Shown: in pieces, positions 3,647 through 54,756 of the stretch
How positions within the stretch are numbered: the stretch's first letter is position 1
Layout: every line of letters starts with the position of its first letter
Origin: an uncultured Clostridia bacterium
GTDB taxonomy: Bacteria; Bacillota; Clostridia; Christensenellales; Pumilibacteraceae
Reading direction: 5' to 3'
Assembly: GCA_944363615.1 (NCBI GenBank)
Contig: CALVUQ010000001.1
Location: 44,691-108,690, forward strand
Length of the DNA stretch: 64,000 nucleotides
Position numbers and translations under genes: made by a program
The notes under the pieces: model-generated
Seen by the model: the letters and a program-made list of their open reading frames with translations, nothing else
Told to the model about the DNA's origin: nothing
Databases searched by the model: none

Positions 3647-4099
3647 TCAGTCCTCTTTTTTCTCTTCTTCGGCTTTCTTTTCTTCTTCGGCCTTGCGCTG
3701 ATAGTAATTTTTGTATCCGACGTTCTGGTTGTCGCCCTGATCCCATTTTTTGCCCCCCACCGCCATAAAGCCGAGCAGCAACGCAACGGTTACCACAACT
3801 GCGATAATGGGCATCACGAGTTTTCCGGGAAGAGCGATTTCACCGATGAGGGCAAACAAGGCGACGATAAGCAGCCCTGCGCCGAAGTAGATATAAAGTT
3901 TTTTAACGGGGCCCGCCGTTGACGAAAACAAACCGCGGAGAATAAACATTACGCCGAAAACGCCCGCAATAATCGTAATCGCCCAGCCCAGCGAGAACCA
4001 TCCGAAAGTATCCTCGACAAGCAGCGACAAAAGCCACAAAACCGCCGCGGCTACCGCGACCAGGCCAAGCACGAATTTAAACAGAAAATTTTTACTCAT
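3647..4099 (-). CDS. polytopic membrane protein with lysine/glutamate-rich C-terminal tail
   Basis: About four hydrophobic helices, tail KAEEEKKAEEEKKED. SD aaaggag. Fourth gene of a tightly packed operon. Confidence 0.6.
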   Translation of the reverse strand: MSKNFLFKFVLGLVAVAAAVLWLLSLLVEDTFGWFSLGWAITIIAGVFGVMFILRGLFSSTAGPVKKLYIYFGAGLLIVALFALIGEIALPGKLVMPIIAVVVTVALLLGFMAVGGKKWDQGDNQNVGYKNYYQRKAEEEKKAEEEKKED

Positions 4100-4119
4100 T
4101 ATAAAAAGCTCCTTTAATA

Positions 4120-4542
4120 TTATCTCAGCACCACGGTATGTGAAACCGCGGTAACCTCGTCCCCCTCGGCGATGACTATGCTGTCGCCGTGTTTATACTC
4201 TCTTACGAACCCGCCAGCGCGGATGTTGAAGCTGTCCGCCCCGTCGGACGCCGACAGAACGGTGTATTTGCCGGGCATAAGGAATCCGTTTTTTTCGGCT
4301 TTATAAGTCTTTCCCGCCTTAAGGACGACGTCGCCCTCGTTGTGGGTTACGTTTACTTCGCCGCCCGAGGTGATTTTATCGCTTTCGGTGTAGCGTACGC
4401 CGTCTACCACGTTGACTTTGCCCGCCTTGTCGGAGTCGGTCTTACCCTTGTTTTTCTTTCTTAACGCCACCACCGCGGCCGCAATCAGAACGACGACCAG
4501 AACGGCGATGATTACGATAAGAGCAATCTGATTAGGTTCCAT
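4120..4542 (-). CDS. single-pass membrane protein with beta-rich soluble domain
   Basis: N-terminal TM helix (IALIVIIAVLVVVLIAAAVVAL) followed by RKKNKGK. SD ggagg. Gap of 17 nt to the upstream gene. Confidence 0.6.
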   Translation of the reverse strand: MEPNQIALIVIIAVLVVVLIAAAVVALRKKNKGKTDSDKAGKVNVVDGVRYTESDKITSGGEVNVTHNEGDVVLKAGKTYKAEKNGFLMPGKYTVLSASDGADSFNIRAGGFVREYKHGDSIVIAEGDEVTAVSHTVVLR

Positions 4543-4559: not shown

Positions 4560-5684
4560 TTATCCGCCGAAAAACGAATACAAAAAGCCCAGGGCGGAAA
4601 CGACCGCCAATCCTACGACAACGGTTATGAACACTTTAAGAGGCGATACGGGAGTCTTGCCCGTAACTTTTCCGTTAAATCCGTTGACGAAGAAATTGTA
4701 AAGTTTTTTGCGCCAGTTGCAGTGACCCACGTAGATGGGCAAAAGCAGATATTTATAAGTAATGTTGTTGCATTCGGTGGAAACGTTAAAAGAAGACACC
4801 ACGTCGTAAGTATATTGACTCAGTATGGCGGAGCGCAATTTCTGACGGATAAGAACTTTTGCCTCCTCCCAGCAGGAAATGCCGTCTTTCGTGTACTGGC
4901 TGGCGGTAAAACCGCTTAAAAACTCCTGAGCGTATTCGTTGCTGTCGTTGGTGTTGAAAGGCTGAAGCTTGTTAAGCGACTTCTGGTTGATAATCGTGGA
5001 CGCCTGTATAAGCACGTCGTCGAAAAACATGGAGTAATCGCCGCTGACGTTGAAGTATTTTATGTAACGCTCCTGCACAGTCTTGCCGTTGACGCGTCTT
5101 GTGCGGTAGTAATACTTTCCCAGCACGCCGTTGTAGCGCGAAAACGTTGCCGTATCAAAAGAGAACGCAGGGTTATAAACCCCTTTCACGTCTTCGGGAG
5201 TAACGCTTTTTTTGAATTTTTTCGGGGCGAACAGCTTTTTCCTGGCCCACTTTTTCACTATACCGCAGGCGTCGTCCTTGCTGAGTTTAAACGGGACAAT
5301 GGCATTGGGTTTTATGCCGGAAAGCTCGTCTGTTTCCACGATGTTGGTCGTGCCGCAGAATGAACACGTCTTGGCAAACTCGTTTTTGTCGAGAACTTCT
5401 TTCGCGCCGCAGTTTTCGCAACGGAAAACGTGCGTTTCGTCCGCCCATGTATTGTTTTCTTTAAGCAGCCGCTCGAAAGCCATTTCTTCGCTGCTTTTGG
5501 AGTGAATTTCCTGTTTGGTGCCGCAATGTTCGCAATACAGACAGTTTTCGCCGGGCAGATACACCATGTTTGCACCGCAAGCGGGACATTTCGTAACGGC
5601 GGTGTCGTTTTTCACTTCCGAAAAGCCTTCGGCCTCAAAAGGGTTTTCATCCTCGAAAGGATTGATTTTATTTTCTTGTTCCAT
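4560..5684 (-). CDS. double zinc-ribbon protein with C-terminal TM anchor (YdjG-like)
   Basis: Two CxxC...CxxC ribbons (CPACG..CEHCG; CENCG..CSFCG), an LLPIYV..VNGFNGKVTGKTP motif and a C-terminal hydrophobic helix. SD aaggaag. Confidence 0.7.
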   Translation of the reverse strand: MEQENKINPFEDENPFEAEGFSEVKNDTAVTKCPACGANMVYLPGENCLYCEHCGTKQEIHSKSSEEMAFERLLKENNTWADETHVFRCENCGAKEVLDKNEFAKTCSFCGTTNIVETDELSGIKPNAIVPFKLSKDDACGIVKKWARKKLFAPKKFKKSVTPEDVKGVYNPAFSFDTATFSRYNGVLGKYYYRTRRVNGKTVQERYIKYFNVSGDYSMFFDDVLIQASTIINQKSLNKLQPFNTNDSNEYAQEFLSGFTASQYTKDGISCWEEAKVLIRQKLRSAILSQYTYDVVSSFNVSTECNNITYKYLLLPIYVGHCNWRKKLYNFFVNGFNGKVTGKTPVSPLKVFITVVVGLAVVSALGFLYSFFGG

Positions 5685-9134: not shown

Positions 9135-9386
9135 ATGAAAGAAAGTATAAAAGCAAGGACACTTACAGAGGCGGAATACATAGTAAAAACAAAAGCAACC
9201 GTAAGGGATACCGCAAAAACTTTCGAAGTCAGCAAAAGCACCGTACATAAGGACGTTTCCGAACGTCTGAAACACATAGATATTTCCCTCTACCGCGAAG
9301 TGAAAAAAATACTCGACTTCAATCTTTCGGAGCGTCACTTGCGCGGCGGAAAGGCCACAAAGGAAAAATACGCGAAAAAACAGTAA
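9135..9386 (+). CDS. spoIIID: sporulation transcriptional regulator SpoIIID
   Basis: 83 aa. The sequence ATVRDTAKTFEVSKSTVHKDVSERL...LSERHLRGGKATKEKY is characteristic of SpoIIID. Confidence 0.9.
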   Translation: MKESIKARTLTEAEYIVKTKATVRDTAKTFEVSKSTVHKDVSERLKHIDISLYREVKKILDFNLSERHLRGGKATKEKYAKKQ

Positions 9387-11680: not shown

Positions 11681-11968
11681 TCAGACCTGATGCTCGTCGA
11701 TGGCGACCTGAGATTTAACTTTTTCAAACTCCTCCAGAACGACTTTTTTAAGCATTTCTCTGGTTTCGGTGTTAAGCGGATGCACAATGTCCTTATACTC
11801 TCCGTCAGGAGTCTTTTTGCTGGGCATGGCGATAAAGAAGTCGTCGCTTCCCTCTAAGATTTTGACGTCGTGCACAACGAAACAATTGTCGATGGTGATC
11901 GATGCAACGGCTTTAAGTTTACCCTCGTCTTTTTTAACAAGTCTTACGCGTACTTCGCTAATGTTCAT
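11681..11968 (-). CDS. spoVG: septation/sporulation protein SpoVG
   Basis: [35 protein letters not shown]...[22 protein letters not shown] is the canonical SpoVG sequence. Confidence 0.95.
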
Positions 11969-23651: not shown

Positions 23652-23918
23652 ATGGAAAACGAAACAATAAAAAAACGCCATTCGTTAACGCTGGAAAACA
23701 GGGCAAAAGGCAGTATGACGGGAGTCAGCGAAGTGCTTTCCTACGGCGAAAACGAACTTTGTCTAAATACAAGCGAGGGGCTTTTGACGCTTACGGGCAA
23801 ACAGCTTAAAATTATAAAATACAATACCGAAGACGGCAGCCTGGCTTTTTCGGGCAGCGTGGACACCGTTAAATACAATGCCAAAAAACCGCCTCTTATC
23901 AAGCGTATCTTCAAATGA
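23652..23918 (+). CDS. yabP: sporulation protein YabP
   Basis: The pattern HSLTLENRAKGSMTGVSEVLSYGENELCLNTSEGLLTLTGKQLKI matches the YabP family. SD ggagg. Confidence 0.85.
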   Translation: MENETIKKRHSLTLENRAKGSMTGVSEVLSYGENELCLNTSEGLLTLTGKQLKIIKYNTEDGSLAFSGSVDTVKYNAKKPPLIKRIFK

Positions 23919-24247
23919 ACGAAACCGTTCTTTTCTTTCTGTGCGTTGCGGCGGGGTTATTTGCAAGGGCTTTGTTTATCCCCTTTCGCCCCTTGCTTAA
24001 AAAAAGCGGAACGGCTTTGACTTTCATCACCGATACCGTCCTGACTTTTCTGGGCGGCGTGCCTTTTGCCGCGCTTATATTTATTTTTAACGACGGAATC
24101 ATGCCGTACTTTGCGGTGGCGGCATTCGACACAGGACTTTTGCTGCCTTCGGCGTTTAAATTATTTAATTTCAAAAAGGCATTGCATTTAACTTTGTCAC
24201 AGCGTAAATCTTGCGATAACAATGCCGCAAAAGCGGAAGTTAAATAA
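23915..24247 (+). CDS. yabQ: spore cortex biosynthesis protein YabQ
   Basis: Small polytopic membrane protein. Its start overlaps the yabP stop (ATGA), the conserved yabP-yabQ arrangement. Confidence 0.7.
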   Translation: MNETVLFFLCVAAGLFARALFIPFRPLLKKSGTALTFITDTVLTFLGGVPFAALIFIFNDGIMPYFAVAAFDTGLLLPSAFKLFNFKKALHLTLSQRKSCDNNAAKAEVK

Positions 24248-30884: not shown

Positions 30885-31412
30885 TTACTTGAAGTATCTG
30901 TCAAGCAATCCCTTGAAGCCTGCGCCGTGACGCGCCTCGTCCTTCGCCATTTCGTGAACGGTATCGTGAACGGCGTCGTAACCGAGCTCTTTTGCGCGTT
31001 TTGCAAGCTCCAGCTTGCCTTTGCAAGCGCCCGCTTCAGCCATGTAACGAAGCTCAAGGTTCTTCTTGGTGGAATCGGTAACGACTTCGCCCAGAAGCTC
31101 GGCAAATTTTGCGGCATGCTCAGCCTCTTCGTAAGCGTATCTCTTATAAGCCTCGGCAACTTCGGGATAACCTTCGCGCTCGGCTACTCTTGCCATGGCA
31201 AGATACATGCCTACTTCGGTGCATTCGCCGGTAAAGTTCTCCTTAAGTCCGTTGACGACCATTTCGTCCTCTACTTTGCCGTCGCCTACGTGATGCTCGC
31301 AAGCCCAGGTCTCCTTTTCGGCGGGAACAGGCTCAAACTTAGTGGCGCCGCACTGAGGGCATCTCGTTACGTTGTCTTCAACCACACAACCGCAAACCAA
31401 ACATCTTTTCAT
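30885..31412 (-). CDS. rbr: reverse rubrerythrin (N-terminal rubredoxin-like domain plus ferritin-like diiron domain)
   Basis: CLVCG..CPQCG at the N-terminus, then [12 protein letters not shown] and EMAKDEARH diiron motifs. Confidence 0.85.
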
Positions 31413-31495: not shown

Positions 31496-31918
31496 TTATG
31501 CGTCCGCTTTGTCCTTTTTTATACAATCGGGACATATCCCGTAAAAAACAAGTTTTTCCCTTTCCACCTTATACCCTAAATTTTCCACCTCGTCGGTTAA
31601 AGCCGAAGCAATGAACACGTCCTTTATTTTGCCGCACCTGCTGCAAACAAAATGCGCGTGATTGCTGACGTCGGCGTCGTAATGAATACAGTCTTTGGTG
31701 GTTTCAAGAGTGTTGACCTTGCCCGTCGCCACAAGCTTTTTAAGATTGCGATAAACCGTTGCCACCCCTATGTTGGGAAGACGCCGCTTTACCTCATTGT
31801 AAATGGCGTCCACATCGGGATGAGAGGTCGTGCTTTTAAGCGTCTCGTATATTATATCGCATTGAGCGGAATGTCTTACGCCCTTTTCGGTATTGACTTG
31901 TGATGTCTTTTCAATCAT
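31496..31918 (-). CDS. fur: Fur family transcriptional regulator
   Basis: Winged-helix region ATVYRNLKKL, then HAHFVCSRCGK...CPDC metal sites. Confidence 0.85.
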   Translation of the reverse strand: MIEKTSQVNTEKGVRHSAQCDIIYETLKSTTSHPDVDAIYNEVKRRLPNIGVATVYRNLKKLVATGKVNTLETTKDCIHYDADVSNHAHFVCSRCGKIKDVFIASALTDEVENLGYKVEREKLVFYGICPDCIKKDKADA

Positions 31919-32135: not shown

Positions 32136-33305
32136 ATGTTTACTTTAACGCCGCCGATGGGCTGGAATTCATGGAACACGTTTGCGGAAAATATCGACGA
32201 AAAGCTGATACGCGATACCGCGGACGTAATTGTGGAAAAAGGACTTGATAAACTGGGTTACAATTACGTAATAATCGACGACTGCTGGTCGGAAAAGGTG
32301 CGCGACAAAAACGGAAGGCTTGTCGCCGACGCAAAAAAATTTCCCTCGGGAATAAAAGCGCTTTCCGACTACATCCATTCAAAAGGATTGAAATTCGGCA
32401 TGTATTCCTGCTCGGGCACGCTGACCTGCGCGGGTTACCCGTCCAGTTACGAATACGAATTCATTGACGCGGATACGTTTGCAAAATGGGGCGTTGATTA
32501 CCTTAAATACGACTTCTGCTTCAAACCCGAGTTCGTTCAGGGCAAAACCCTTTACCGGCGCATGGGAACGGCGCTTGCAAACTGCGGCAGGGATATCCTG
32601 TTTGCGGCGTGCAGCTGGGGCGCGGAAAAAACTCACGAATGGATACGCTCCACCGGTGCAGGCACATGGCGTTCAACAGGCGACATTTTCGACAACTGGG
32701 AATCCGTTAAAAAAATAATTCTGCAGCAGGTCGACAGGACGGGCGAGTACGGCGGCAGCGGCGCAATGCCTTTCGGCGGACTGGGCTGTTTTAACGACAT
32801 GGATATGCTTATCGTGGGTATGAACGGTAAAGGCAACGTAGGATTGGGCGGCTGTACTTCGGAAGAATACAGGACTCATTTTTCCGCCTGGGCTATTTTC
32901 GCCTCCCCCCTCATTATCGGTTGCGACGTAAGAAACCTGGACCCCGAAGCGGAAAAAATCCTTACCAACAAAGAAGTTATTGCAGTTAACCAGGACGTGC
33001 GCGGCGCTCAGCCCTATATCGCCAACGAAGTCTGGCTTAAGGAAAACAACGACAATACCCCCGTTGTGGCAAGACTGCTTGCAAACGGCGACATTGCTGT
33101 GGCATTGTTTAACCTTAAGGACGAAGGCTCGCGCGTGGACTTCCGCGGCGACCAGCTGGGACTTTCCCCGTCCACCAAAGTCAGACTTTTCGCGCGCGAT
33201 CTTTGGAGCGGCGAAGAATTCGAGATACACAATTACACCTACTTTACGCACATCGACGCGCACGCTTGCAAACTTTTAAGAGTCAGGGTCGTCCCGCAAT
33301 TATGA
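32136..33305 (+). CDS. glycoside hydrolase family 27 alpha-galactosidase / alpha-N-acetylgalactosaminidase
   Basis: PPMGWNSWN, IIDDCW and YLKYDFC motifs. ATG at 32136 lies 6 nt after gggagg. Confidence 0.85.
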   Translation: MFTLTPPMGWNSWNTFAENIDEKLIRDTADVIVEKGLDKLGYNYVIIDDCWSEKVRDKNGRLVADAKKFPSGIKALSDYIHSKGLKFGMYSCSGTLTCAGYPSSYEYEFIDADTFAKWGVDYLKYDFCFKPEFVQGKTLYRRMGTALANCGRDILFAACSWGAEKTHEWIRSTGAGTWRSTGDIFDNWESVKKIILQQVDRTGEYGGSGAMPFGGLGCFNDMDMLIVGMNGKGNVGLGGCTSEEYRTHFSAWAIFASPLIIGCDVRNLDPEAEKILTNKEVIAVNQDVRGAQPYIANEVWLKENNDNTPVVARLLANGDIAVALFNLKDEGSRVDFRGDQLGLSPSTKVRLFARDLWSGEEFEIHNYTYFTHIDAHACKLLRVRVVPQL

Positions 33306-33502
33306 GCCGTTGCAAAAATTGCGGAAAAGAGCTGAACACCGTCGACATAGGGCTTACCAAAAAGCTGATAAACCGCGGCGCGACGGAATTTTACTGCAAA
33401 AAATGTCTTGCCGCTAAATTCAACGTCACGGAAGAGCTTCTTGACGAAAAAGTCAGACAATTCCGCGCGGCGGGCTGCATGCTTTTCCCTCCCCTTGAGT
33501 AA
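33302..33502 (+). CDS. small zinc-ribbon protein (66 aa)
   Basis: MSRCKNCGKEL...YCKKCL. The ATG overlaps the GH27 stop (ATGA), suggesting translational coupling. Confidence 0.5.
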   Translation: MSRCKNCGKELNTVDIGLTKKLINRGATEFYCKKCLAAKFNVTEELLDEKVRQFRAAGCMLFPPLE

Positions 33503-33647: not shown

Positions 33648-34457
33648 CTATCTTACGCCCAGTTTTTTAAGAATCTGAGCGGCTTTTAAAGGATTATTGC
33701 AGGTAAACGCAACTGCGCCGCGCTCTAAAGCCGTCTTAAAGGTCTCCTCCTCGTCAACCTTGAAATAGCACCACGGCTCGGCACCGTAAGATTTTACCAG
33801 GTCAAACTTCGATTGATCGGACACGATGTTCGTTTTGCTCCAGTCGGCTTTTCCGTTTTTGTCAAAAGAAATGTTGAAAAGGCAAACGCAGGCACAGCGC
33901 TTAAAAAAGTTTTCGGAAAAATATTCGCCCAGAAGCCTTACGGGACAATATCCGTGCAACCTTATGCGGTTTTCGTATTTCGTGTAAACGTAATTTAATA
34001 TGTCTCCCGAAAAACTGTTGATGTAACAGCGTTCCGTTACGCCGTATTCGTCCAGCATCGCGATCGCCTTGTCGCAGGATTCGTAAGCAAAAGCGCCGCA
34101 TTCGCCTGGATAGTCTTTAAGCTCGATATTAAGCTCGATATCCTTGCGGTCTTTGACAAGCTCCAGAAACTCGCGGAGAGTCGGAACTTTTTCCCCTTTG
34201 AACTTTTCACCCTTATGTATTCCGGCGTCGGCTTTTTCCACTTCGGCAAAATCCGTTTCGCGTATCAGTCCTTTTTTGTCGGTAGTGCGGCAAAGATCAT
34301 GATCGTGCATAAGCACAAGAACACCGTCGCGGGTCATGTGAACGTCCGTTTCAATCATGTCAATGTCCAGCTTAAGCGCTTCCTTAAAAGCGACCATCGT
34401 GTTTTCCGGATAACATTCCGAAAAACCTCTGTGAGCGGCAAGTCTGATTTTTTTCAT
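33648..34457 (-). CDS. glycerophosphodiester phosphodiesterase family protein
   Basis: AHRGFSECYPENTMVAF and ETDVHMTRDG motifs of the GDPD fold. SD aggagg. Confidence 0.85.
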   Translation of the reverse strand: MKKIRLAAHRGFSECYPENTMVAFKEALKLDIDMIETDVHMTRDGVLVLMHDHDLCRTTDKKGLIRETDFAEVEKADAGIHKGEKFKGEKVPTLREFLELVKDRKDIELNIELKDYPGECGAFAYESCDKAIAMLDEYGVTERCYINSFSGDILNYVYTKYENRIRLHGYCPVRLLGEYFSENFFKRCACVCLFNISFDKNGKADWSKTNIVSDQSKFDLVKSYGAEPWCYFKVDEEETFKTALERGAVAFTCNNPLKAAQILKKLGVR

Positions 34458-34609
34458 ATCCTCTTCCTCCTTATAATGAGGTTAATTTTATCACTTGCAA
34501 ACTACAAAGTCAAGTCGCGTTTAACCATTTTAAATATTTTTTCATATCATGTAAAAGGGAAGATTTTTTACTTCCTTAATTCAAACCAAAGAAACACGAG
34601 GATTTTTAT

Positions 34610-34990
34610 ATGTTCAATAACCTTTTCGATAATCTTTTCGGCTTTAACCGTTGCGGCAACTCTTCCCAAAACAACTGCGGCTGCGACAGTAATTGTCAGA
34701 ACGGCTGCGGCTGCGGCAATTCTTCTCAAAACAACTGCGGCTGCGACAGTAATTGGCAGAACGGCTGCGGTTGCGGCAATTCTTCCCAAAACAACTGCGG
34801 CTGCGACAGCGGTTGGCAGAACGGCTGCGGCTGCGGCAATTCTTCCCGAACCAACTGCGGGTGCGACAGCGGTTGGCAGAACGACTGCGGCTGCGGAAAC
34901 TCTTCTCAAACCAACTGCGGGTGTGACGAATGCCATATAAGAAAACGGCGCTGTCACAAATGCAAATGTTTTTTCTTCCTTAATTATTAA
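34610..34990 (+). CDS. cysteine-rich tandem-repeat protein (126 aa, 24 Cys)
   Basis: SD gagga lies 8 nt upstream of the ATG and a terminator follows immediately. Differences between repeat copies include several third-position synonymous changes in this frame (TCC/TCT, GGC/GGT, GGC/GGG, TGC/TGT). Confidence 0.6.
   Translation: MFNNLFDNLFGFNRCGNSSQNNCGCDSNCQNGCGCGNSSQNNCGCDSNWQNGCGCGNSSQNNCGCDSGWQNGCGCGNSSRTNCGCDSGWQNDCGCGNSSQTNCGCDECHIRKRRCHKCKCFFFLNY
34652..34933 (+). repeat. about 4.7 tandem copies of a 60-nt (20-codon) unit
   Basis: Unit tgcggcaattcttcccaaaacaactgcggctgcgacagyrrttggcagaacggctgcggc encodes CGNSSQNNCGCDSxWQNGCG. Confidence 0.9.
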
Positions 34991-34993
34991 AAA

Positions 34994-35030
34994 GAAAAAA
35001 ACCGCTTTTTTATAAAGCGGTTTTTGTTTT
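34994..35030. terminator. bidirectional terminator (Cys-rich gene / rpsR)
   Basis: Stem aaaaaaaccgcttt / aaagcggttttt flanked by A and T runs. Confidence 0.75.
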
Positions 35031-35302
35031 TACTCTCCCTTATAAGGCAGTAAAGCGATTGCCCTTGCGCGTTTGATGGCGACGGCAAGCTGACGCTGAT
35101 GTTCGGCACAGGTGCCGGAAGCACGGCGGGGAATGATTTTGCCCTTTTCCGTGATGAATCTTTTAAGTTTTGCAACGTCCTTGTAATCGATTTCCTCTAT
35201 TTTTTCGGCACAGAACGCGCAAACTTTTTTCTTGGGCGCGCGTCTGAACTTTTTGGACTTATCGTCCGTATCGACGTTTTTAGTGATATTTTTCTTATCC
35301 AT
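35030..35302 (-). CDS. rpsR: 30S ribosomal protein S18
   Basis: [53 protein letters not shown] is the canonical S18 sequence. Confidence 0.95.
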
Positions 35303-35326
35303 TTTAAATTACCTCATAAAAAATTT

Positions 35327-35746
35327 TCAGAAAGGCAGGTCGTCCGTATCGACGGGTTCCAGCTCACTGACCTTTTTGTTCTGCCCGGAAGGCCTGTTAG
35401 AGGGACCTGCGGCGGGCGCGCCGTCTGCGCTTTTGGGCGAAATGAATTCCACGTCTTCGGCGACGATGTCCGTCATATAACGCTTGTTGCCGTCCTTATC
35501 CTCGTAAGTGCGGTTCTGAAGCTGGCCTACGACGCAGACTTTACTTCCCTTGAAAAGGTACTTGCTGCAATTGTCCGCAAGGCCTCTCCAGGTGACGATG
35601 TTGATAAAGTCCGTCTCCCTTTCTCCGTTGGCGTTTGAATAGGAGCGGTTAACGGCAATGCTGAATCTGCAAAGCGAAACGCCGCTGCCTGTGGTCTGAT
35701 ACTCGGGGTCTCTGGTAAGATTACCGATAAAAATACATTTGTTCAT
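35327..35746 (-). CDS. ssb: single-stranded DNA-binding protein
   Basis: MNKCIFIGNLTRDPE OB fold and acidic C-terminal tip DDLPF. Confidence 0.95.
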   Translation of the reverse strand: MNKCIFIGNLTRDPEYQTTGSGVSLCRFSIAVNRSYSNANGERETDFINIVTWRGLADNCSKYLFKGSKVCVVGQLQNRTYEDKDGNKRYMTDIVAEDVEFISPKSADGAPAAGPSNRPSGQNKKVSELEPVDTDDLPF

Positions 35747-35759
35747 AATTTACCGCCTG

Positions 35760-36041
35760 TTATTTCTTCACCACGATAAATCTGATAACTTCGTCCGTGA
35801 TGCGCATCTGACGTTCAAGTTCCTGCGGGAAATCGCTGGGAGCCGTGAAGTTCATAAGCACATAGTAGCCTTCCGACTTGAAGTCGATCTCGTAAGCAAG
35901 CTTTTTAACGCCCCACTTGTCAACGCTTTCCACAGTTCCGCCGCCGTTTTCCACCGCGGTCTTGAACTTGTCGCAAAGCGCGTCTTTTGCAGCGTCGTCA
36001 ATCTTCGCGTCGAGAATGTAAAGAACCTCGTACTTGTTCAT
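35760..36041 (-). CDS. rpsF: 30S ribosomal protein S6
   Basis: MNKYEVLYILD...WGVKKLAYEI is the canonical S6 sequence. Confidence 0.95.
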   Translation of the reverse strand: MNKYEVLYILDAKIDDAAKDALCDKFKTAVENGGGTVESVDKWGVKKLAYEIDFKSEGYYVLMNFTAPSDFPQELERQMRITDEVIRFIVVKK

Positions 36042-50181: not shown

Positions 50182-53100
50182 GTGAGTAAAACCAAAATAA
50201 TGAGCAAGAAAAAAATCATTATTTTTTCCATACTTTTATGTCTTGCCATAATAGCCACGTTTTATTTCCTGGGTTGTCACAAAAACGATTTTACCGACGA
50301 AATAAACCTTAACGGATTGAACGAACAGCAAAGCACCGTCAAGCAAAAGCCCGGCGACGGCTCTACCCCTTCCGACCACAGTCCCGCCGATAACTTTGCT
50401 TACGCGCTGTACGACCTTATGGAAGCGGGCAGCTTTGTAGGCGAATCCAGCGGTCAGACCGTTTCTTTGGGTGTAGAACAAAACGTAAAAGCGATAAGAT
50501 ACGTAAACGGCGACGAGGTTTTTAAACGCTCGCTTTCCCACTCCGCTTTCAAATCCGTGGGTGTGGAAATGTTTGTCAGCGGCAAAAATTACATACTTCG
50601 CGACGCCACTTCCCTTAAATCGGTGGACGAAGTTACCTGGGGCGCCGATCCGTACAGGGTCAGCGAGGAAACTTTCAATTCCAAGTTCGGCGGCGTGCCC
50701 AACGGAATAACGGCGTACGTGTTGAACGAAAATTCCATTGTCTCCGCGGAGTTTCTGGGCGAAGAAAACGGAATTTACGCATACCGTTACGTACTGGACA
50801 ACGCGCTTGCAACCACCAAAATCCGCCTGGAAATGCGTACCATGGCGGGGACAAAGACCTTACCCAACTTTGAAGAAGTTGCGCTTACCGTTTACATGGA
50901 CGCCAACTGGCGCATACAGAAAACCGAAACCGCCTGCGTGTACAAAGTGGATATGCTGGGCGGCGTAACCTGCAAAGAATCTCTGACAGAAGTTTTTTCC
51001 GCGATTGGCGAAGGAAAGGAAATCCCCGACGCGGATATTTTCCGTCCCTATCTCGACGCGGAAATCACCGAAGACGACGGCGAATTCACGCCCGACGCCA
51101 TGTATTACCTCACCAACGGCTTCAACGAGTATATGACGGGAAAGCCGCTGAACCTTTCGCTTGAGATAAAGGGCGCGATAAATGCCGTGGGGTCGGCAAG
51201 CGTGGACATCGACGCAAACGACCTTGCCAACATCCGCGCGCGCGTTTTTCTCGACGAACTCAGTTTCGGCGATATAACCCTTAAAGACCTTTTCGTGGGC
51301 TATGCCTCGGGCGAAGTATATGCCGCTCTCGGTGATTTTAAATTCAAAACGACGGTTAACGAGCTTATTGCGTTTATCGACAAACTTATGCCTCTCATCT
51401 CGTCCGAGCCCGTTAGCGTAGGCGATATGCTGTCCTTTAATCCCGACTCTTTGCTTACGAACGCAACTCTTAAGCGCGAAAACGGGTCCGCCGTCGTCAC
51501 TCTTCCCCTTGAACTGGGCAAACTCGACGCCGATATCGAAATCGGATTTTCAGACGGAGATACGGTCGCCTTTACCGGTATTTACGCTTGCGTCAACGGC
51601 CTTGAAGTGTCTGTAAATCCCGTTGATGAGGTTACTGTGCCCGAAACGGGCGACGACTACCTCAGTATAGCGCCGCTACTTAAGCTTATCGACGACGATT
51701 ACAACCTGGCCTTTAAAGCGCGTTTGGGCAAATCCGACGTACAATTAAAATTCAATCTTGAAACCATGGCCCTTGACGCCGCTTACGGCGACCTGCTTGT
51801 AAAATTCGAAAACGACGTATTATATCTGAATTACGGCGACCTTAAAGCGAAGGCCGACTTAAACGACTTACCCGCGCTTATAGAAAAATTCAAGCCGCTT
51901 TTCGTAAACCCGGACGGCACGTATAAACCGGAATTCCTTTCGGATATTTCAAGCTCGCTTAGCGACCTTGACGCCAAGGCGCTTATAAAGCAGCTTACAG
52001 ACAATCTTGATGTCGTTAAAACCGACGAAGGGGTCAGAATCTCCACCGCCGTTATGGGCGCAAACGTAGGAATTAACCTTTACGCGGGCGAAAGCGGTTA
52101 TTCCTTGACCTCCGTATCGCTCTCTTACGGGGATTTGTCGATTGAAGCCGAACCCGCCGAATCGGATGAAATTCCCGAAATATCCCAAAACGATCTTGCG
52201 GAATATAAAAATATCCTCTCTCTTGCAGACATTATAGACGAAAATTACCAAATAAATCTTTCTGCCGCTTTGACCGCGGGTGACCTTTCTTTGAACGCGG
52301 ACCTGTGCATTGACTTAACCACTCTTACCATTACCGCTAAAACTCAGCTTTATAATAACGACCTTTACGTCAAATTTTCCGACGGCACCGTGTATGCTTC
52401 CTTCAAGGGCCTTAACGTTTATGCCGACGTGGACGACATTCAGTCCCTTCTCGACCGTCTTGCTCCGCTTATCGGTGAAAGCTTCTCCTTGGACGGACTT
52501 ACTGACCTTAACATCGACATTGCTTCCGTACTCTCCTCGCTTTCCTTTACCGAATCCGGCAGCGGTCTTATCGCTTCTGTGTCGCTTAGCGGAATAAACG
52601 TTTCCGTTGACTTTACCGCTGAAGCAGACAATCTTAAATTGAGTCGGATTTCCGTTTCCTCCAACGATTTCTCTTTGACCGCCGCGCCTTCAGCCAAAGC
52701 GGATTATTCCGTCATTGACAACGCAGATAAATTCTACAACATCCTCTCTCTTGCGGACATTATAGACGAAAATTACCAAATCAATCTTTCTGCATCGTTG
52801 TCGGGAACCGAAATTGCGATTACCTTAAATCTTGACAGCATGCGCCTTAACGCCTCCGTCGCGGGCGCGGCGATAACTTTTGACATCAACAAGAATACGC
52901 TTTACGCCGCTTACGGCGGGGCAAGAGTAAAGCTCAATCTTGCCGACACAAAGCAAATTCTGGAAAAATTCGGGCCCGTCATCGATAAATTCGATAAAGA
53001 TGGCAAAATAAGCGGATTGTTAAACGGTTTATTAGGCGACAGCGCGAAAAGCTTAAACGTAAGCGATATACTTTCCTCCTTAACCGTATCGGAAGGCGAC

Positions 53101-54756
53101 GGAACATTAAGCTTGTCGCTGAATGTTGCAGGCGTCGATATAGTTGCGATTTTCGCAACAGACGGAGGCGGACTCTCGTTCTCATCGGCTACGATTAACG
53201 CGTCGGGTACAAGTATAAGCGCGCACCTTACCCAAAACATAACGCCGGATCTCGACACGTCGCTTTATTACATGGACCTTAAAGAGTTTACACGGGTTTT
53301 CGGAGACGCTTTGAATAAGCTTGTCACTTCCGAAAATCTCGTCTTCCGCATAAGCGGCACCGTCAGCACGGAAAGCGCGGTTTATACGATAACAAACGGA
53401 GAATTGGTTGTAGGCGGCATAGGCTCTGCCTGCAAAATAAACGCCGACTTTACTTTCGTCAAAAAGACCTCTGACGCAAGCGGAAACGTAACTGAAAAGA
53501 CCAATACTTTGCGCTTTGTCTACGACTTAGACGCACAAGAGGGCTACTTTAACTTTAACGGTATAGAAGGCACCTTCTCCACTGTTGACTATAACGAAAC
53601 GCTGGAAATTCTGAAACAGATATACCACAACATTCCCGAACTTCAGGAGCTTATTTCGGGCATAATACCCTTGTCTGAAGACGGTAAATTCAGTATGCCG
53701 GAGTTTGATTTCACTAAAATAATCAGCTCTCTTTCGCTATCAGACAGCGGAGTGCTTAATGTGGACGTAAACGCTAAGTCAGTGATAGATGTCCTGCCCG
53801 AATCGATAAAATTATCGCTTTCGCTCTCCGATGACGGTGCGCTTAACCTTGATCTTGATGAACTTGTATTGGGCGGCACCTCGGTAAAGCTTTCGGTAAA
53901 CGCTGCGCCTTATGCCAATGCGGACGCGGAAGGCAAATTCGATTACACCCCCGGCGAAAACGCAAGCGACTTTTCTTCCGTCAACACCTTGCTTAAAACG
54001 CTTGCGACGACATCCGCATACAGACATTATGAACTTAACGGTAACCTTAACCTTGATTTAATGGGCTTTATCAACGTTAACGATAAAGTCAAACTGAACA
54101 TTAAAATTGACATTGTAGACGGAGTTACTTACGTTGTTGCCACCCTTACGCGCGAATATGTGTTTGCCGCAAACTTGGCCGGTATGTATCCCTGGAGCGA
54201 TTACAGCGGTACATCCACGCTTTACTACGACGGCGAAACCAAAATGATTTATATTGCAACCGATCATATAAAATCCAAAAGTATCTTGGGCGTCAATTAC
54301 AAAAACGGCGAAGAGCAGATTTACGAAAAATATACCGAAGAAGAATTTTCCGCAGACACACTGAATATTCTTCTCGGAATGCTGCGCTTAAGCTCCAAGT
54401 ATCGGGACATGATAGGAAACGCAAACACCAATACTTCCGCCATAAATATCGAAGATATATTTACCAAATATTCCTACAACGGCACCGATATGTTCACGCT
54501 GAATCTTAACCTCGGCACCCTCACCGACAACTCCCTCAACGACCTTACGGTAAACTTACATCACGACTCCGACTACAACCTGAGCTCCTTAGACGTAAGC
54601 ACCTCGGTGGGCGCGCTTGGAATTGACAAGATGCTGGGCATAAACTTCAGCGCAACGCACGTCGCGCCTTATAACCACGATAACGGCGTTAAGGAACAGG
54701 TTAAACTGCAACCCACCCTGACCGACGGAAACGGCAATCCTCTTTACGGCGATTAA
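50182..54756 (+). CDS. 1524-aa membrane-anchored / lipoprotein-like modular repeat protein of unknown function
   Basis: GTG start lies 8 nt after aaaggag. N-terminal basic region plus hydrophobic helix ends in FLGC. About six ~180-aa modules are each opened by a Y-x-x-I-L-S-L-A-D-I-I-D-E-N-Y-like helix. I see no catalytic or known-domain motif. Confidence 0.8.
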   Translation: MSKTKIMSKKKIIIFSILLCLAIIATFYFLGCHKNDFTDEINLNGLNEQQSTVKQKPGDGSTPSDHSPADNFAYALYDLMEAGSFVGESSGQTVSLGVEQNVKAIRYVNGDEVFKRSLSHSAFKSVGVEMFVSGKNYILRDATSLKSVDEVTWGADPYRVSEETFNSKFGGVPNGITAYVLNENSIVSAEFLGEENGIYAYRYVLDNALATTKIRLEMRTMAGTKTLPNFEEVALTVYMDANWRIQKTETACVYKVDMLGGVTCKESLTEVFSAIGEGKEIPDADIFRPYLDAEITEDDGEFTPDAMYYLTNGFNEYMTGKPLNLSLEIKGAINAVGSASVDIDANDLANIRARVFLDELSFGDITLKDLFVGYASGEVYAALGDFKFKTTVNELIAFIDKLMPLISSEPVSVGDMLSFNPDSLLTNATLKRENGSAVVTLPLELGKLDADIEIGFSDGDTVAFTGIYACVNGLEVSVNPVDEVTVPETGDDYLSIAPLLKLIDDDYNLAFKARLGKSDVQLKFNLETMALDAAYGDLLVKFENDVLYLNYGDLKAKADLNDLPALIEKFKPLFVNPDGTYKPEFLSDISSSLSDLDAKALIKQLTDNLDVVKTDEGVRISTAVMGANVGINLYAGESGYSLTSVSLSYGDLSIEAEPAESDEIPEISQNDLAEYKNILSLADIIDENYQINLSAALTAGDLSLNADLCIDLTTLTITAKTQLYNNDLYVKFSDGTVYASFKGLNVYADVDDIQSLLDRLAPLIGESFSLDGLTDLNIDIASVLSSLSFTESGSGLIASVSLSGINVSVDFTAEADNLKLSRISVSSNDFSLTAAPSAKADYSVIDNADKFYNILSLADIIDENYQINLSASLSGTEIAITLNLDSMRLNASVAGAAITFDINKNTLYAAYGGARVKLNLADTKQILEKFGPVIDKFDKDGKISGLLNGLLGDSAKSLNVSDILSSLTVSEGDGTLSLSLNVAGVDIVAIFATDGGGLSFSSATINASGTSISAHLTQNITPDLDTSLYYMDLKEFTRVFGDALNKLVTSENLVFRISGTVSTESAVYTITNGELVVGGIGSACKINADFTFVKKTSDASGNVTEKTNTLRFVYDLDAQEGYFNFNGIEGTFSTVDYNETLEILKQIYHNIPELQELISGIIPLSEDGKFSMPEFDFTKIISSLSLSDSGVLNVDVNAKSVIDVLPESIKLSLSLSDDGALNLDLDELVLGGTSVKLSVNAAPYANADAEGKFDYTPGENASDFSSVNTLLKTLATTSAYRHYELNGNLNLDLMGFINVNDKVKLNIKIDIVDGVTYVVATLTREYVFAANLAGMYPWSDYSGTSTLYYDGETKMIYIATDHIKSKSILGVNYKNGEEQIYEKYTEEEFSADTLNILLGMLRLSSKYRDMIGNANTNTSAINIEDIFTKYSYNGTDMFTLNLNLGTLTDNSLNDLTVNLHHDSDYNLSSLDVSTSVGALGIDKMLGINFSATHVAPYNHDNGVKEQVKLQPTLTDGNGNPLYGD
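52213..52793 (+). repeat. near-identical 53-nt segments 528 nt apart inside the modular gene
   Basis: 52213-52265 and 52741-52793 match at 51 of 53 positions (atcctctctcttgcRgacattatagacgaaaattaccaaatMaatctttctgc). The offset is exactly 176 codons. Confidence 0.85.

Follow-up and report, generated by a model that had tools for sequence, protein, structure and literature searches.

A tandem-repeat, cysteine-rich gene in the slot between GDPD and rpsR of uncultured Christensenellales-like gut bacteria: a candidate spore-layer protein of no described family

The locus and the gene product

The window analysed here is a 64-kb stretch of contig CALVUQ010000001.1 from an uncultured Clostridia bacterium, and the subject of this work is a small gene on its plus strand, at positions 34610-34990, referred to below as the Cys gene. 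It lies between a divergent gene for a GDPD-family phosphodiesterase and the convergent genes rpsR, ssb and rpsF; all these neighbours are on the minus strand, in agreement with an earlier reading of the window made from its letters alone (hereafter the sequence-only reading), which had described a monocistronic plus-strand gene among minus-strand genes. The product of the open reading frame (ORF) has 126 amino acids (13.5 kDa, pI 6.6), and the 24 Cys residues counted in that reading (19.0%) are indeed present. Ten CxC and two CxxC motifs are found in the protein, which is rich in Cys, Gly, Ser, Asn and Asp, the repeats being composed mainly of Cys, Gly, Asn, Ser and Gln and devoid of Lys and Arg. 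From a compositional perspective it is also relatively aromatic, with Phe, Trp and Tyr accounting for 8.7% of the residues (7 F, 3 W and 1 Y), and it contains two His.

The central part of the protein is made of 20-residue tandem units, as already proposed, and Tandem Repeats Finder assigned to the underlying DNA a period of 60 nt with 4.6 copies (91% matches, score 412). The short N-terminus of 14 residues and the basic tail flank this array in the way that had been described, with one correction: within the N-terminus there is a tandem duplication of 12 nt, detected by the same program at 34613-34640 (TTCGATAACCTT, 2.3 copies) and responsible for the sequence NLFD-NLFG. Since the element is present as a single copy in a sister species (MFYNLFGFNRC, locus L084), the N-terminus of the window protein also appears to be growing through repeat expansion. 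An AlphaFold2 single-sequence model of the protein reached a mean pLDDT of 49.8 and a pTM of 0.39, with faint short strands about every 10 residues, and a Foldseek search of the PDB with this model returned no match; the model is best regarded as unusable and as a basis for no structural inference.

The coding frame

Codon usage, the variation at synonymous sites and the conservation of an open frame in eight relatives agree on the Cys frame and, for this reason, the ORF is considered a real protein-coding gene on sequence evidence. When the nine repeat units of two strains are compared, 13 columns are variable and 8 of them fall at position 3 of the codons of the Cys frame, so that the synonymous third-position differences between repeat copies noticed in the sequence-only reading are real. 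The ratio of synonymous to nonsynonymous changes in the units is 7:6 in the Cys frame vs 1:12, 4:9, 1:12, 4:9 and 3:10 in the other five. In addition, the mean log relative synonymous codon frequency of the Cys frame (-0.889) falls within the spread of 28 genes of the window (-0.994 +/- 0.072), the scores of the other five frames at the locus ranging from -1.39 to -2.16. The Cys frame is also the only one without internal stops in all of the 8 orthologous sequences, including those that are not repetitive.

An Ala-rich ORF on the opposite strand (34568-34957) was evaluated as a candidate gene and ruled out on the basis of its codon usage, its 1:12 ratio of synonymous to nonsynonymous changes and the stops found in orthologs: it is open in the window and in the loci L001, L002 and L084, and it is interrupted by two stops in L003, L006, L009 and L082. 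The sequence-only reading had stated that the gene would be called into question if relatives preserved the Ala-rich frames; it is the Cys frame that the relatives keep.

Recovery of relatives and evolution of the locus

Searches of Pfam and NCBIfam with the window protein and three of its positional orthologs, and of the PDB sequences with the window protein, gave no match at E <= 10, and no Rfam match was found in a scan of the window. The suggestion that the protein belongs to no described family is thus borne out, every sequence-based test of membership having been negative. Only one relative, P0001 (106 aa), emerged when 5.8 billion protein clusters were searched by word index; it is encoded by a gut metagenome contig (L001) that is syntenic with the window and 98.8% identical to it over 10 kb. 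P0001 has exactly one repeat unit fewer than the window protein, with the synonymous variants reshuffled and the flanks identical. An exhaustive phmmer search of 1.84 billion representatives produced 23 matches, among which P0001 is the only true relative; two others, P0002 and P0004, share the Cys skeleton, and the remainder are unrelated translations of tandem repeats, mostly eukaryotic. The exact window protein is absent from the record as a called gene product and, when the ortholog of locus L003 was used as a query against the 5.8-billion-protein collection, no match was returned, not even the L003 protein itself.

Protein-seeded searches for loci in genome and metagenome collections likewise yielded no confirmed relative; this outcome was a false negative, since the tblastn step used for confirmation missed L002 in the genome collection and L084 and L085 in the metagenome collection. 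Relatives were instead recovered by using the adjoining ssb gene as an anchor, which gave 80 loci, and by scanning these for Cys-rich ORFs in the slot between GDPD and rpsR; L084 was found through a degenerate DNA pattern for the C-terminal tail. The scarcity of relatives in protein databases is partly due to the fact that contigs of metagenome-assembled genomes (MAGs) break at the repeat: the L002 contig ends inside the gene and the L001 contig starts 216 nt upstream of it. More generally, repeat-bearing Cys genes are systematically under-represented in MAGs and protein databases, as assemblies break or collapse and low-complexity filters hide them.

By these synteny searches, positional orthologs were identified in about five lineages of related, uncultured gut bacteria of Christensenellales-like character, in three forms: tandem CGCG alleles (from about 1.5 to at least 5.3 units), a non-tandem CGCG form and a Cys/Pro-rich form. 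The first is found in a sister species (L002, UMGS606, about 83% DNA identity), whose repeat, homogenised to a different sequence (CGCGNSWQNDCSCGSSSQSN), is present in at least 5.3 units and followed by a tail (CHIRKRRCSRCKCFFFLNF) nearly identical to that of the window, a near-identity also seen in the sister-species tail SCHIRKRRCSRCKCFFFLNF. A complete allele of the same species, of 65 amino acids and about 1.5 units, is carried by L084 (11761-11958 in reverse-complement coordinates), and its shortness may be the result of an assembly collapse. The non-tandem form, in L003 (HGM11395, about 76% DNA identity), is a 109-aa ORF with 27 Cys (24.8%), rich in CGCG, Asn, Asp, Ser and Trp, and it stands in the same gene order as in the window (GDPD, Cys gene, rpsR). 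Finally, in L006, L009, L082 and P0024-26 the slot between GDPD and rpsR is occupied by a Cys/Pro-rich protein of 133-159 aa, which in L006 and L009 has 27-29% proline, 3-4 CxC motifs and about 13% aromatic residues. The Cys gene was absent from L004, L008 and L010 in the scan of the ssb-anchored loci.

In the Cys/Pro group the synteny extends over a melibiase, a small ORF, GDPD, the Cys gene, an additional 306-aa gene, rpsR, ssb, rpsF, ADH and a giant GH43 protein. The additional gene between the Cys gene and rpsR was observed in L006 (4942-5862), L009 (5017-5940) and L082 (5597-6517), and its 306-aa product begins in the manner of a lipoprotein (…LTGCGEK), without a Pfam match on record. A small zinc-ribbon-like ORF (…CKNCGKELNT…YCKKC…) is found at 33203-33502 on the plus strand of the window, overlapping the melibiase gene at its 3' end. 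As a 68-aa gene has been called at the equivalent position in L082 (3716-3922), this ORF is probably a genuine, conserved small gene.

Across the members, Cys content ranges from 16.8 to 24.8% and aromatic residues from 7 to 14%. Short, hydrophobic/acidic counterparts of the N-terminus can be recognised, i.e., MFNNLFDNLF in the window, MFYNLFGFNR in L084, MIFKNFG in L003 and MDLFDFLNxY in L006 and L009, and in all members the last 20 residues include 3-6 Lys and Arg, 6 hydrophobic or aromatic residues and a C-x(1-3)-C...CF motif. Homology between the CGCG and the Cys/Pro subtypes rests mainly on position, the alignment being weak. Repeat number, which the sequence-only reading had suggested surveying in related strains, does vary both between strains and between species (about 1.5 to at least 5.3 units). 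The units are more alike within each genome than between the two tandem-repeat species; the positions C1 G2 C3 W7 Q8 N9 C11 C13 G14 S16 S17 Q18 N20 are common to both, and the others differ. Such a pattern is that of concerted evolution in which the Cys, Trp-Gln-Asn and Ser-Ser-Gln positions are under selection. Unusual traits of the family are a Cys content about twice that of CdeC and CdeM, near-perfect 20-aa units that evolve concertedly and a core that has been wholly re-made in one conserved slot, being of the CGCG type in some members and of the Cys/Pro type in others.

Expression signals

The signals flanking the Cys gene and the other features discussed in this work are collected in Table 1. 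The promoter predicted upstream of the gene can be read in two ways: as mACm-N17-CATAnnnT(G) it is of the sigma-K type, and as TTAACC-N18-TATCAT it is a weak promoter of the sigma-A type, with 9 of 12 positions matching sigma-70. The consensus of sigma-K in B. subtilis is mACm-N16/17-CATAnnnTA, and the invariant CA immediately on the 5' side of TATNNT is the core of sigma-E/K -10 boxes and not a feature of sigma-A. Only four occurrences of the sigma-K-like pattern are found when the two strands of the window (128 kb) are taken together, and shuffling of each upstream region reproduces it in 1-2% of cases. Furthermore, the intergenic regions of the five lineages are otherwise unalignable, and TTAACm-N16-CATATnnT(A/G) is the only element conserved for the Cys gene: AC-N17-CATAnnnT(A/G) is present in 4 of the 5 lineages and none of them lacks the CATA box, the same bases also fitting sigma-A with an 18-nt spacer. 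The scan for sigma-K or sigma-E promoters that had been recommended for this region therefore leads to a conserved sigma-K-like element, with a sigma-A reading that fits too, and the sigma-K-type assignment is suggestive. A sigma-G reading of the -10 box was rejected, as CATnnTA fits L003 alone.

The 152-nt intergenic region also contains, on the minus strand, a canonical sigma-A promoter for GDPD (TTGACT-17-TAAAAT). The upstream sequence AAGTCAAG, conserved in all orthologous regions, was considered as a regulator site and discarded, since it corresponds to the -35 element (TTGACT) of this GDPD promoter. A stem-loop in the 5' untranslated region (5'-UTR) of the Cys gene, kept in the sister species, may stabilise the mRNA. 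The Shine-Dalgarno sequence claimed for the gene is in place, with GAGGA-N8-ATG in L084 and AGGAG or GGAG in L003, L006 and L009, and so is the terminator, a hairpin beginning 7 nt past the stop codon.

Table 1. Features of the Cys gene, its relatives' promoter elements, its neighbours and the sporulation genes of the window
Feature	Position	Strand	Description
Predicted promoter	34521-34551	+	-35 TTAACC (34521-34526); -10 region CATATCATG (34543-34551)
Promoter element, L084			TTAACG...CATATAATA; perfect TATAAT inside
Promoter element, L003			TTAACA...CATATTATA
Promoter element, L009			TTAACC...CATATACTG
Promoter element, L006 and L082			-10 only, CATATAATG
Stem-loop in 5'-UTR	34558-34575	+	GGAAG-N8-CTTCC; kept in sister species L084 as GGAAGATTTTTTCTTCC
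Shine-Dalgarno sequence	34598-34602	+	GAGGA, 7 nt before ATG
N-terminus	34610-34651	+	14 aa, MFNNLFDNLFGFNR; short, hydrophobic/acidic, unlike a signal peptide
Repeat array	34652-34927	+	4.6 x 60 nt, 20-aa unit CGNSSQNNCGCDSxWQNGCG; CxC-x7-CxC-x6
C-terminal tail and stop codon	34928-34990	+	ECHIRKRRCHKCKCFFFLNY; basic, rich in Cys and aromatic residues
Intrinsic terminator	34997-35025	.	Bidirectional, 12-bp stem, T-runs on both sides; common to convergent rpsR; identical in L001
GDPD-family phosphodiesterase	33648-34457	-	Upstream neighbour, divergent
rpsR, ssb, rpsF	35030-36041	-	Downstream neighbours, convergent
spoIIID	9135-9386	+	TIGR02844, E = 5.7e-32, full length, 109.9 bits vs cutoff 111.5; outside the Cys gene
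SpoVG	11681-11968	-	Family cutoff passed
yabP	23652-23918	+	TIGR02892, E = 2e-16, full length, below cutoff
yabQ	23915-24247	+	TIGR02893, E = 1.4e-4, weak match, below cutoff

Genomic context and sporulation

Mother-cell regulation of sporulation appears to exist in the organism of the window, because SpoIIID, a mother-cell regulator that acts between sigma-E and sigma-K, is encoded in it. Upstream of spoIIID the arrangement TCATATA-N14-CATAGTAAT is sigma-E-like. No sporulation gene was found among the window ORFs of at least 150 aa, the roughly 30 larger proteins being housekeeping or carbohydrate-active, and the sporulation genes are found only among the small ORFs; SpoIIID, YabP, YabQ and SpoVG count as core mother-cell and sporulation-associated genes. 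As for the identity of the host, SSB identities place the window in an uncultured, Christensenellales-like clade of gut Clostridia, its SSB being 74-75% identical to that of MAGs labelled Pumilibacteraceae, a family whose description is available (bioRxiv 10.1101/2022.03.07.483007).

Some other features of the window were noted in passing. About 3 kb from the Cys gene, an ORF that is rubrerythrin-like by reading of its sequence alone (30885-31412, minus strand) adjoins a regulator of the PerR/Fur family (31496-31918, minus strand; NF052545, E = 2.7e-32, below cutoff); the pair resembles an oxidative-stress module and has no apparent connection with the Cys gene. A protein of 1524 aa with a signal- or anchor-like N-terminus (50182-54756, plus strand) and another of 374 aa (4560-5684, minus strand) have no Pfam match. 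Two small adjoining proteins of 150 and 140 aa (3647-4542, minus strand) look membrane-associated; neither Pfam nor NCBIfam gave a match for the former, and NCBIfam, the only database searched with the latter, gave none. Outside the window, the unrelated locus L019 contains a 71-codon open stretch (5302-5514, plus strand) ending CSVCEGSCLGNCMNMCKGACDGGCQGSCYGTTVVR, which has the look of a SCIFF/ranthipeptide-type, Cys-rich peptide precursor and is unrelated to the Cys gene.

Possible functions of the Cys gene product

By analogy with known systems, the product of the Cys gene is tentatively interpreted as a lineage-specific, modular, Cys-rich structural protein of the outer layers of the spore (coat, crust or exosporium), with a rough probability of 0.45. 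It looks like a case of a known kind of function, that of Cys-rich and/or repeat-modular spore-surface proteins, carried out by a new sequence family. This interpretation is favoured because of the sigma-K-like promoter, the conserved termini around a hypervariable core, the conserved locus with unrelated cores and the aromatic residues of each unit; locus, termini and Cys density are all conserved while the core is hypervariable. Moreover, the lack of a signal peptide, the monocistronic organisation and the patchy distribution in the clade are typical of outer-coat genes. In the course of events that can be inferred, a promoter of the sigma-K/sigma-E type would drive transcription of the gene at a late stage in the mother cell; the protein, devoid of a signal peptide, would be translated in the mother-cell cytoplasm and directed to the surface of the developing spore by its N-terminal (M-x-LF-D/N-x-L) and basic-aromatic C-terminal (C-R/K-x-C...F-x-F) motifs. 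The central repeats, dense in CxC, could then form multiple intermolecular disulfides locking the layer, with the number of repeats setting spacing or valency and the array evolving by unequal recombination.

Several observations weigh against a spore-layer role. The promoter can be read as sigma-A as well (TTAACN-N18-TATNNT, with a G-to-A change in the -35 element and a perfect TATAAT in L084 and L006), and the AC of the -35 element is missing in L006 and L082. The sequence-only reading had called the organism a sporeformer, and SpoIIID, YabP and YabQ speak for this; however, the prediction for most Christensenellales MAGs is that they do not sporulate, a single spore-former being predicted among 19 human MAGs (PMC12536801), and the cultured species of Christensenella are non-spore-forming (PMC11536998). 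SpoIIID itself is 1.6 bits under its cutoff, and YabP and YabQ are also under their curated cutoffs. The Cys content of the family (17-25%) is about twice that of CdeC and CdeM of C. difficile (about 9%), and no homology to any spore protein family was detected in Pfam, NCBIfam and the phmmer search of 1.84 billion representatives. Finally, a search of the window revealed no collagen-like or other spore-surface genes near the Cys gene and no Cys-rich paralogs, and the AlphaFold model (pLDDT 49.8) is uninformative.

The sequence-only reading had left the choice open between a spore protein and a metallothionein; the evidence leans to the former, a leaning that falls short of proof. A metallothionein-like cytoplasmic protein, in which the CxC modules of 20 residues would bind Cu(I), Zn(II) or Cd(II) and their duplication would scale the capacity as in modular eukaryotic metallothioneins, is the main rival and is considered less likely. 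A Cys content of 19% (up to 24.8% in L003), the 10 CxC motifs, the composition rich in Cys, Gly, Ser, Asn and Asp, the small size of 13.5 kDa, the strong Shine-Dalgarno sequence and the lack of a signal peptide are all in keeping with it. The composition appears similar to that of fungal Cu-thioneins such as the metallothionein of Neurospora crassa, and a rapid sequence turnover with retention of Cys density is a habit of these proteins. However, classical metallothioneins have few or no aromatic residues, while here these amount to 7-14% in all members, with a Trp conserved in each repeat and Phe-rich termini; the orthologs of L006 and L009, with 27-29% proline, 3-4 CxC motifs and about 13% aromatic residues, are likewise out of character, and a metallothionein has no use for the conserved termini, one hydrophobic and the other basic-aromatic. 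Furthermore, the conserved locus contains no metal-sensor gene, transporter, recognisable metalloregulator operator or metal-homeostasis gene, and no metallothionein family of Pfam or NCBIfam was matched. Slightly less probable again is the proposal of a new class of bacterial modular metallothioneins, the first in anaerobic gut Firmicutes, in which CxC-x7-CxC-x6 units, each contributing to a metal-thiolate cluster, would stack in a regular, Trp-buttressed beta-solenoid and copy number would tune the metal capacity from strain to strain.

Little probability is also assigned to a Cys-dense protein of vegetative cells, driven by sigma-A and acting as a thiol/redox or sulfur buffer or as a self-aggregating scaffold, with no role in spores or metal binding. 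The possible sigma-A promoter, the unproven sporulation capacity of the lineage (PMC12536801) and the fact that Cys density and short termini are all that is invariant across the subtypes would agree with this idea. It is, on the other hand, vague and difficult to put to the test, and both the conserved -10 box (CATA) and the context of SpoIIID and YabPQ speak for sporulation. No bacterial precedent for such a function is known to us. The Cys gene product could also be imagined as the precursor of an exported ribosomally synthesised and post-translationally modified peptide (RiPP) or bacteriocin, with a Cys-rich core carrying thioether- or sactionine-type links, given that many Clostridia encode Cys-rich peptide precursors and that a SCIFF-like peptide is present in the unrelated L019. 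This is very improbable: the neighbours at all loci are melibiase, GDPD, rpsR, ssb, rpsF and ADH, no radical-SAM or other maturase, protease or ATP-binding cassette (ABC) exporter occurs in the conserved neighbourhood of any locus, typical leaders are longer than the N-terminus of 14 aa, none of the NCBIfam precursor models is matched and the length varies from 65 to more than 126 aa with the number of repeats. That there is no gene at all, and that a (TGCGGC)n-derived minisatellite is open in one frame by chance, might be suggested by the antisense Ala-rich frame, open in the window, L001, L002 and L084, by the absence of the L003 protein from the 5.8-billion-protein collection and by the lack of a record of the exact window protein as a called product; codon usage, the synonymous excess, the Cys frame open in 8 of 8 orthologs and the conservation of ATG, Shine-Dalgarno sequence, promoter and terminator leave this reading effectively refuted. 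A small chance is reserved for some explanation outside those considered.

If the spore-layer interpretation were true, the family would add a new sequence type to the unrelated Cys-rich proteins that build disulfide-locked envelopes in sporeformers, and would offer a marker for uncultured Christensenellales-like bacteria of the human and animal gut, whose sporulation, and hence transmission from host to host, is now guessed from gene-content classifiers. It would also extend to Clostridia, with a Cys chemistry, the scheme proposed for CotG-like proteins, in which a conserved slot and terminal motifs surround a freely re-evolving repeat core. The family is a testable orphan with an instructive evolutionary pattern, unsurprising to specialists and with functional steps deduced by analogy.

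Comparison with known systems

Although metallothioneins, in particular fungal Cu-thioneins and modular forms, resemble the window family in their high Cys content, their CxC motifs, their richness in Cys, Gly, Ser and Asn, their modular duplication and their Cys-retaining divergence, the agreement is partial. Size, Cys content (about 15-30% in metallothioneins) and the arrangement of CxC, CC and CxxC motifs correspond, whereas the scarcity of aromatic residues and His and a family match do not: the family has a Trp in each unit, Phe-rich termini, His, Pro-rich orthologs and no metal context.

Among the matches of the phmmer search, P0002 and P0004 have 21-aa repeats (CG-x5-CGCD-x6-GCGCG) with the same Cys/Gly/Asp skeleton (BLASTP 43% identity over 96 aa, E = 2e-20). 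They differ from the window protein in their size (811 and 1150 aa), signal peptides, large non-repeat domains, 21-aa period and inter-Cys positions rich in Pro, Lys and Ala, and have no match in Pfam or NCBIfam. Their unit may represent a wider, undescribed extracellular Cys-repeat module, or a convergence from DNA of the (TGCGGC)n type.

Closer parallels are offered by the proteins of spore layers. CdeM of C. difficile, like CdeC an exosporium morphogenetic protein, is species-restricted and has no conserved domains; it contains repeats rich in Asn and Gly as well as CHK repeats, and its C-terminus is basic and rich in Cys (PMC6101409). CdeM, which is small (161 aa), and CdeC resemble the window protein in being domain-less and restricted to one species or family, with N/G-rich repeats and CHK motifs, and in having no signal peptide; disulfide cross-linking is thought to occur for both and is a candidate role for the window protein, whose tail (CHIRKRRCHKCKC) recalls the basic, Cys-rich C-terminus of CdeM. 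In contrast, there is no detectable homology, the Cys content of the window family is 17-25% vs about 9%, its repeats are tandem units of 20 aa, almost perfect and variable in copy number, and its host is an uncultured Christensenellales-like bacterium. CsxA, ExsY/CotY and CdeC/CdeM are unrelated Cys-rich proteins that build disulfide-cross-linked spore layers, and more candidates have been predicted in sporeformers (PMC7333573). With the self-assembling CsxA, ExsY/CotY and CotZ the window protein would share the general principle of unrelated Cys-rich proteins assembled within the mother cell into disulfide-locked layers; those proteins, however, are non-repetitive and larger, of about 16-33 kDa, and fold into the units of hexameric lattices, while the window protein is of low complexity and has no confident fold.

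The CotG-like proteins of Bacillus are encoded at a conserved locus by non-homologous sequences; their termini mediate interactions and enclose a central region of repeats (PMC9765600), which arose as a mini-gene was elongated again and again (Saggese et al. 2016, cited in PMC9765600). Their repeats, in the case of CotG, are rich in Lys, Arg and Ser, carry a positive charge and are phosphorylated by CotH, the kinase encoded by the adjacent, divergently transcribed gene, whereas those of the window protein are rich in Cys, Gly and Asn and near neutral, and the divergent neighbour of the Cys gene is the GDPD phosphodiesterase and not cotH. The architecture is nevertheless the same in both cases, with a species-specific tandem-repeat region between short, distinct termini, encoded in a conserved slot where the primary sequence is not conserved.

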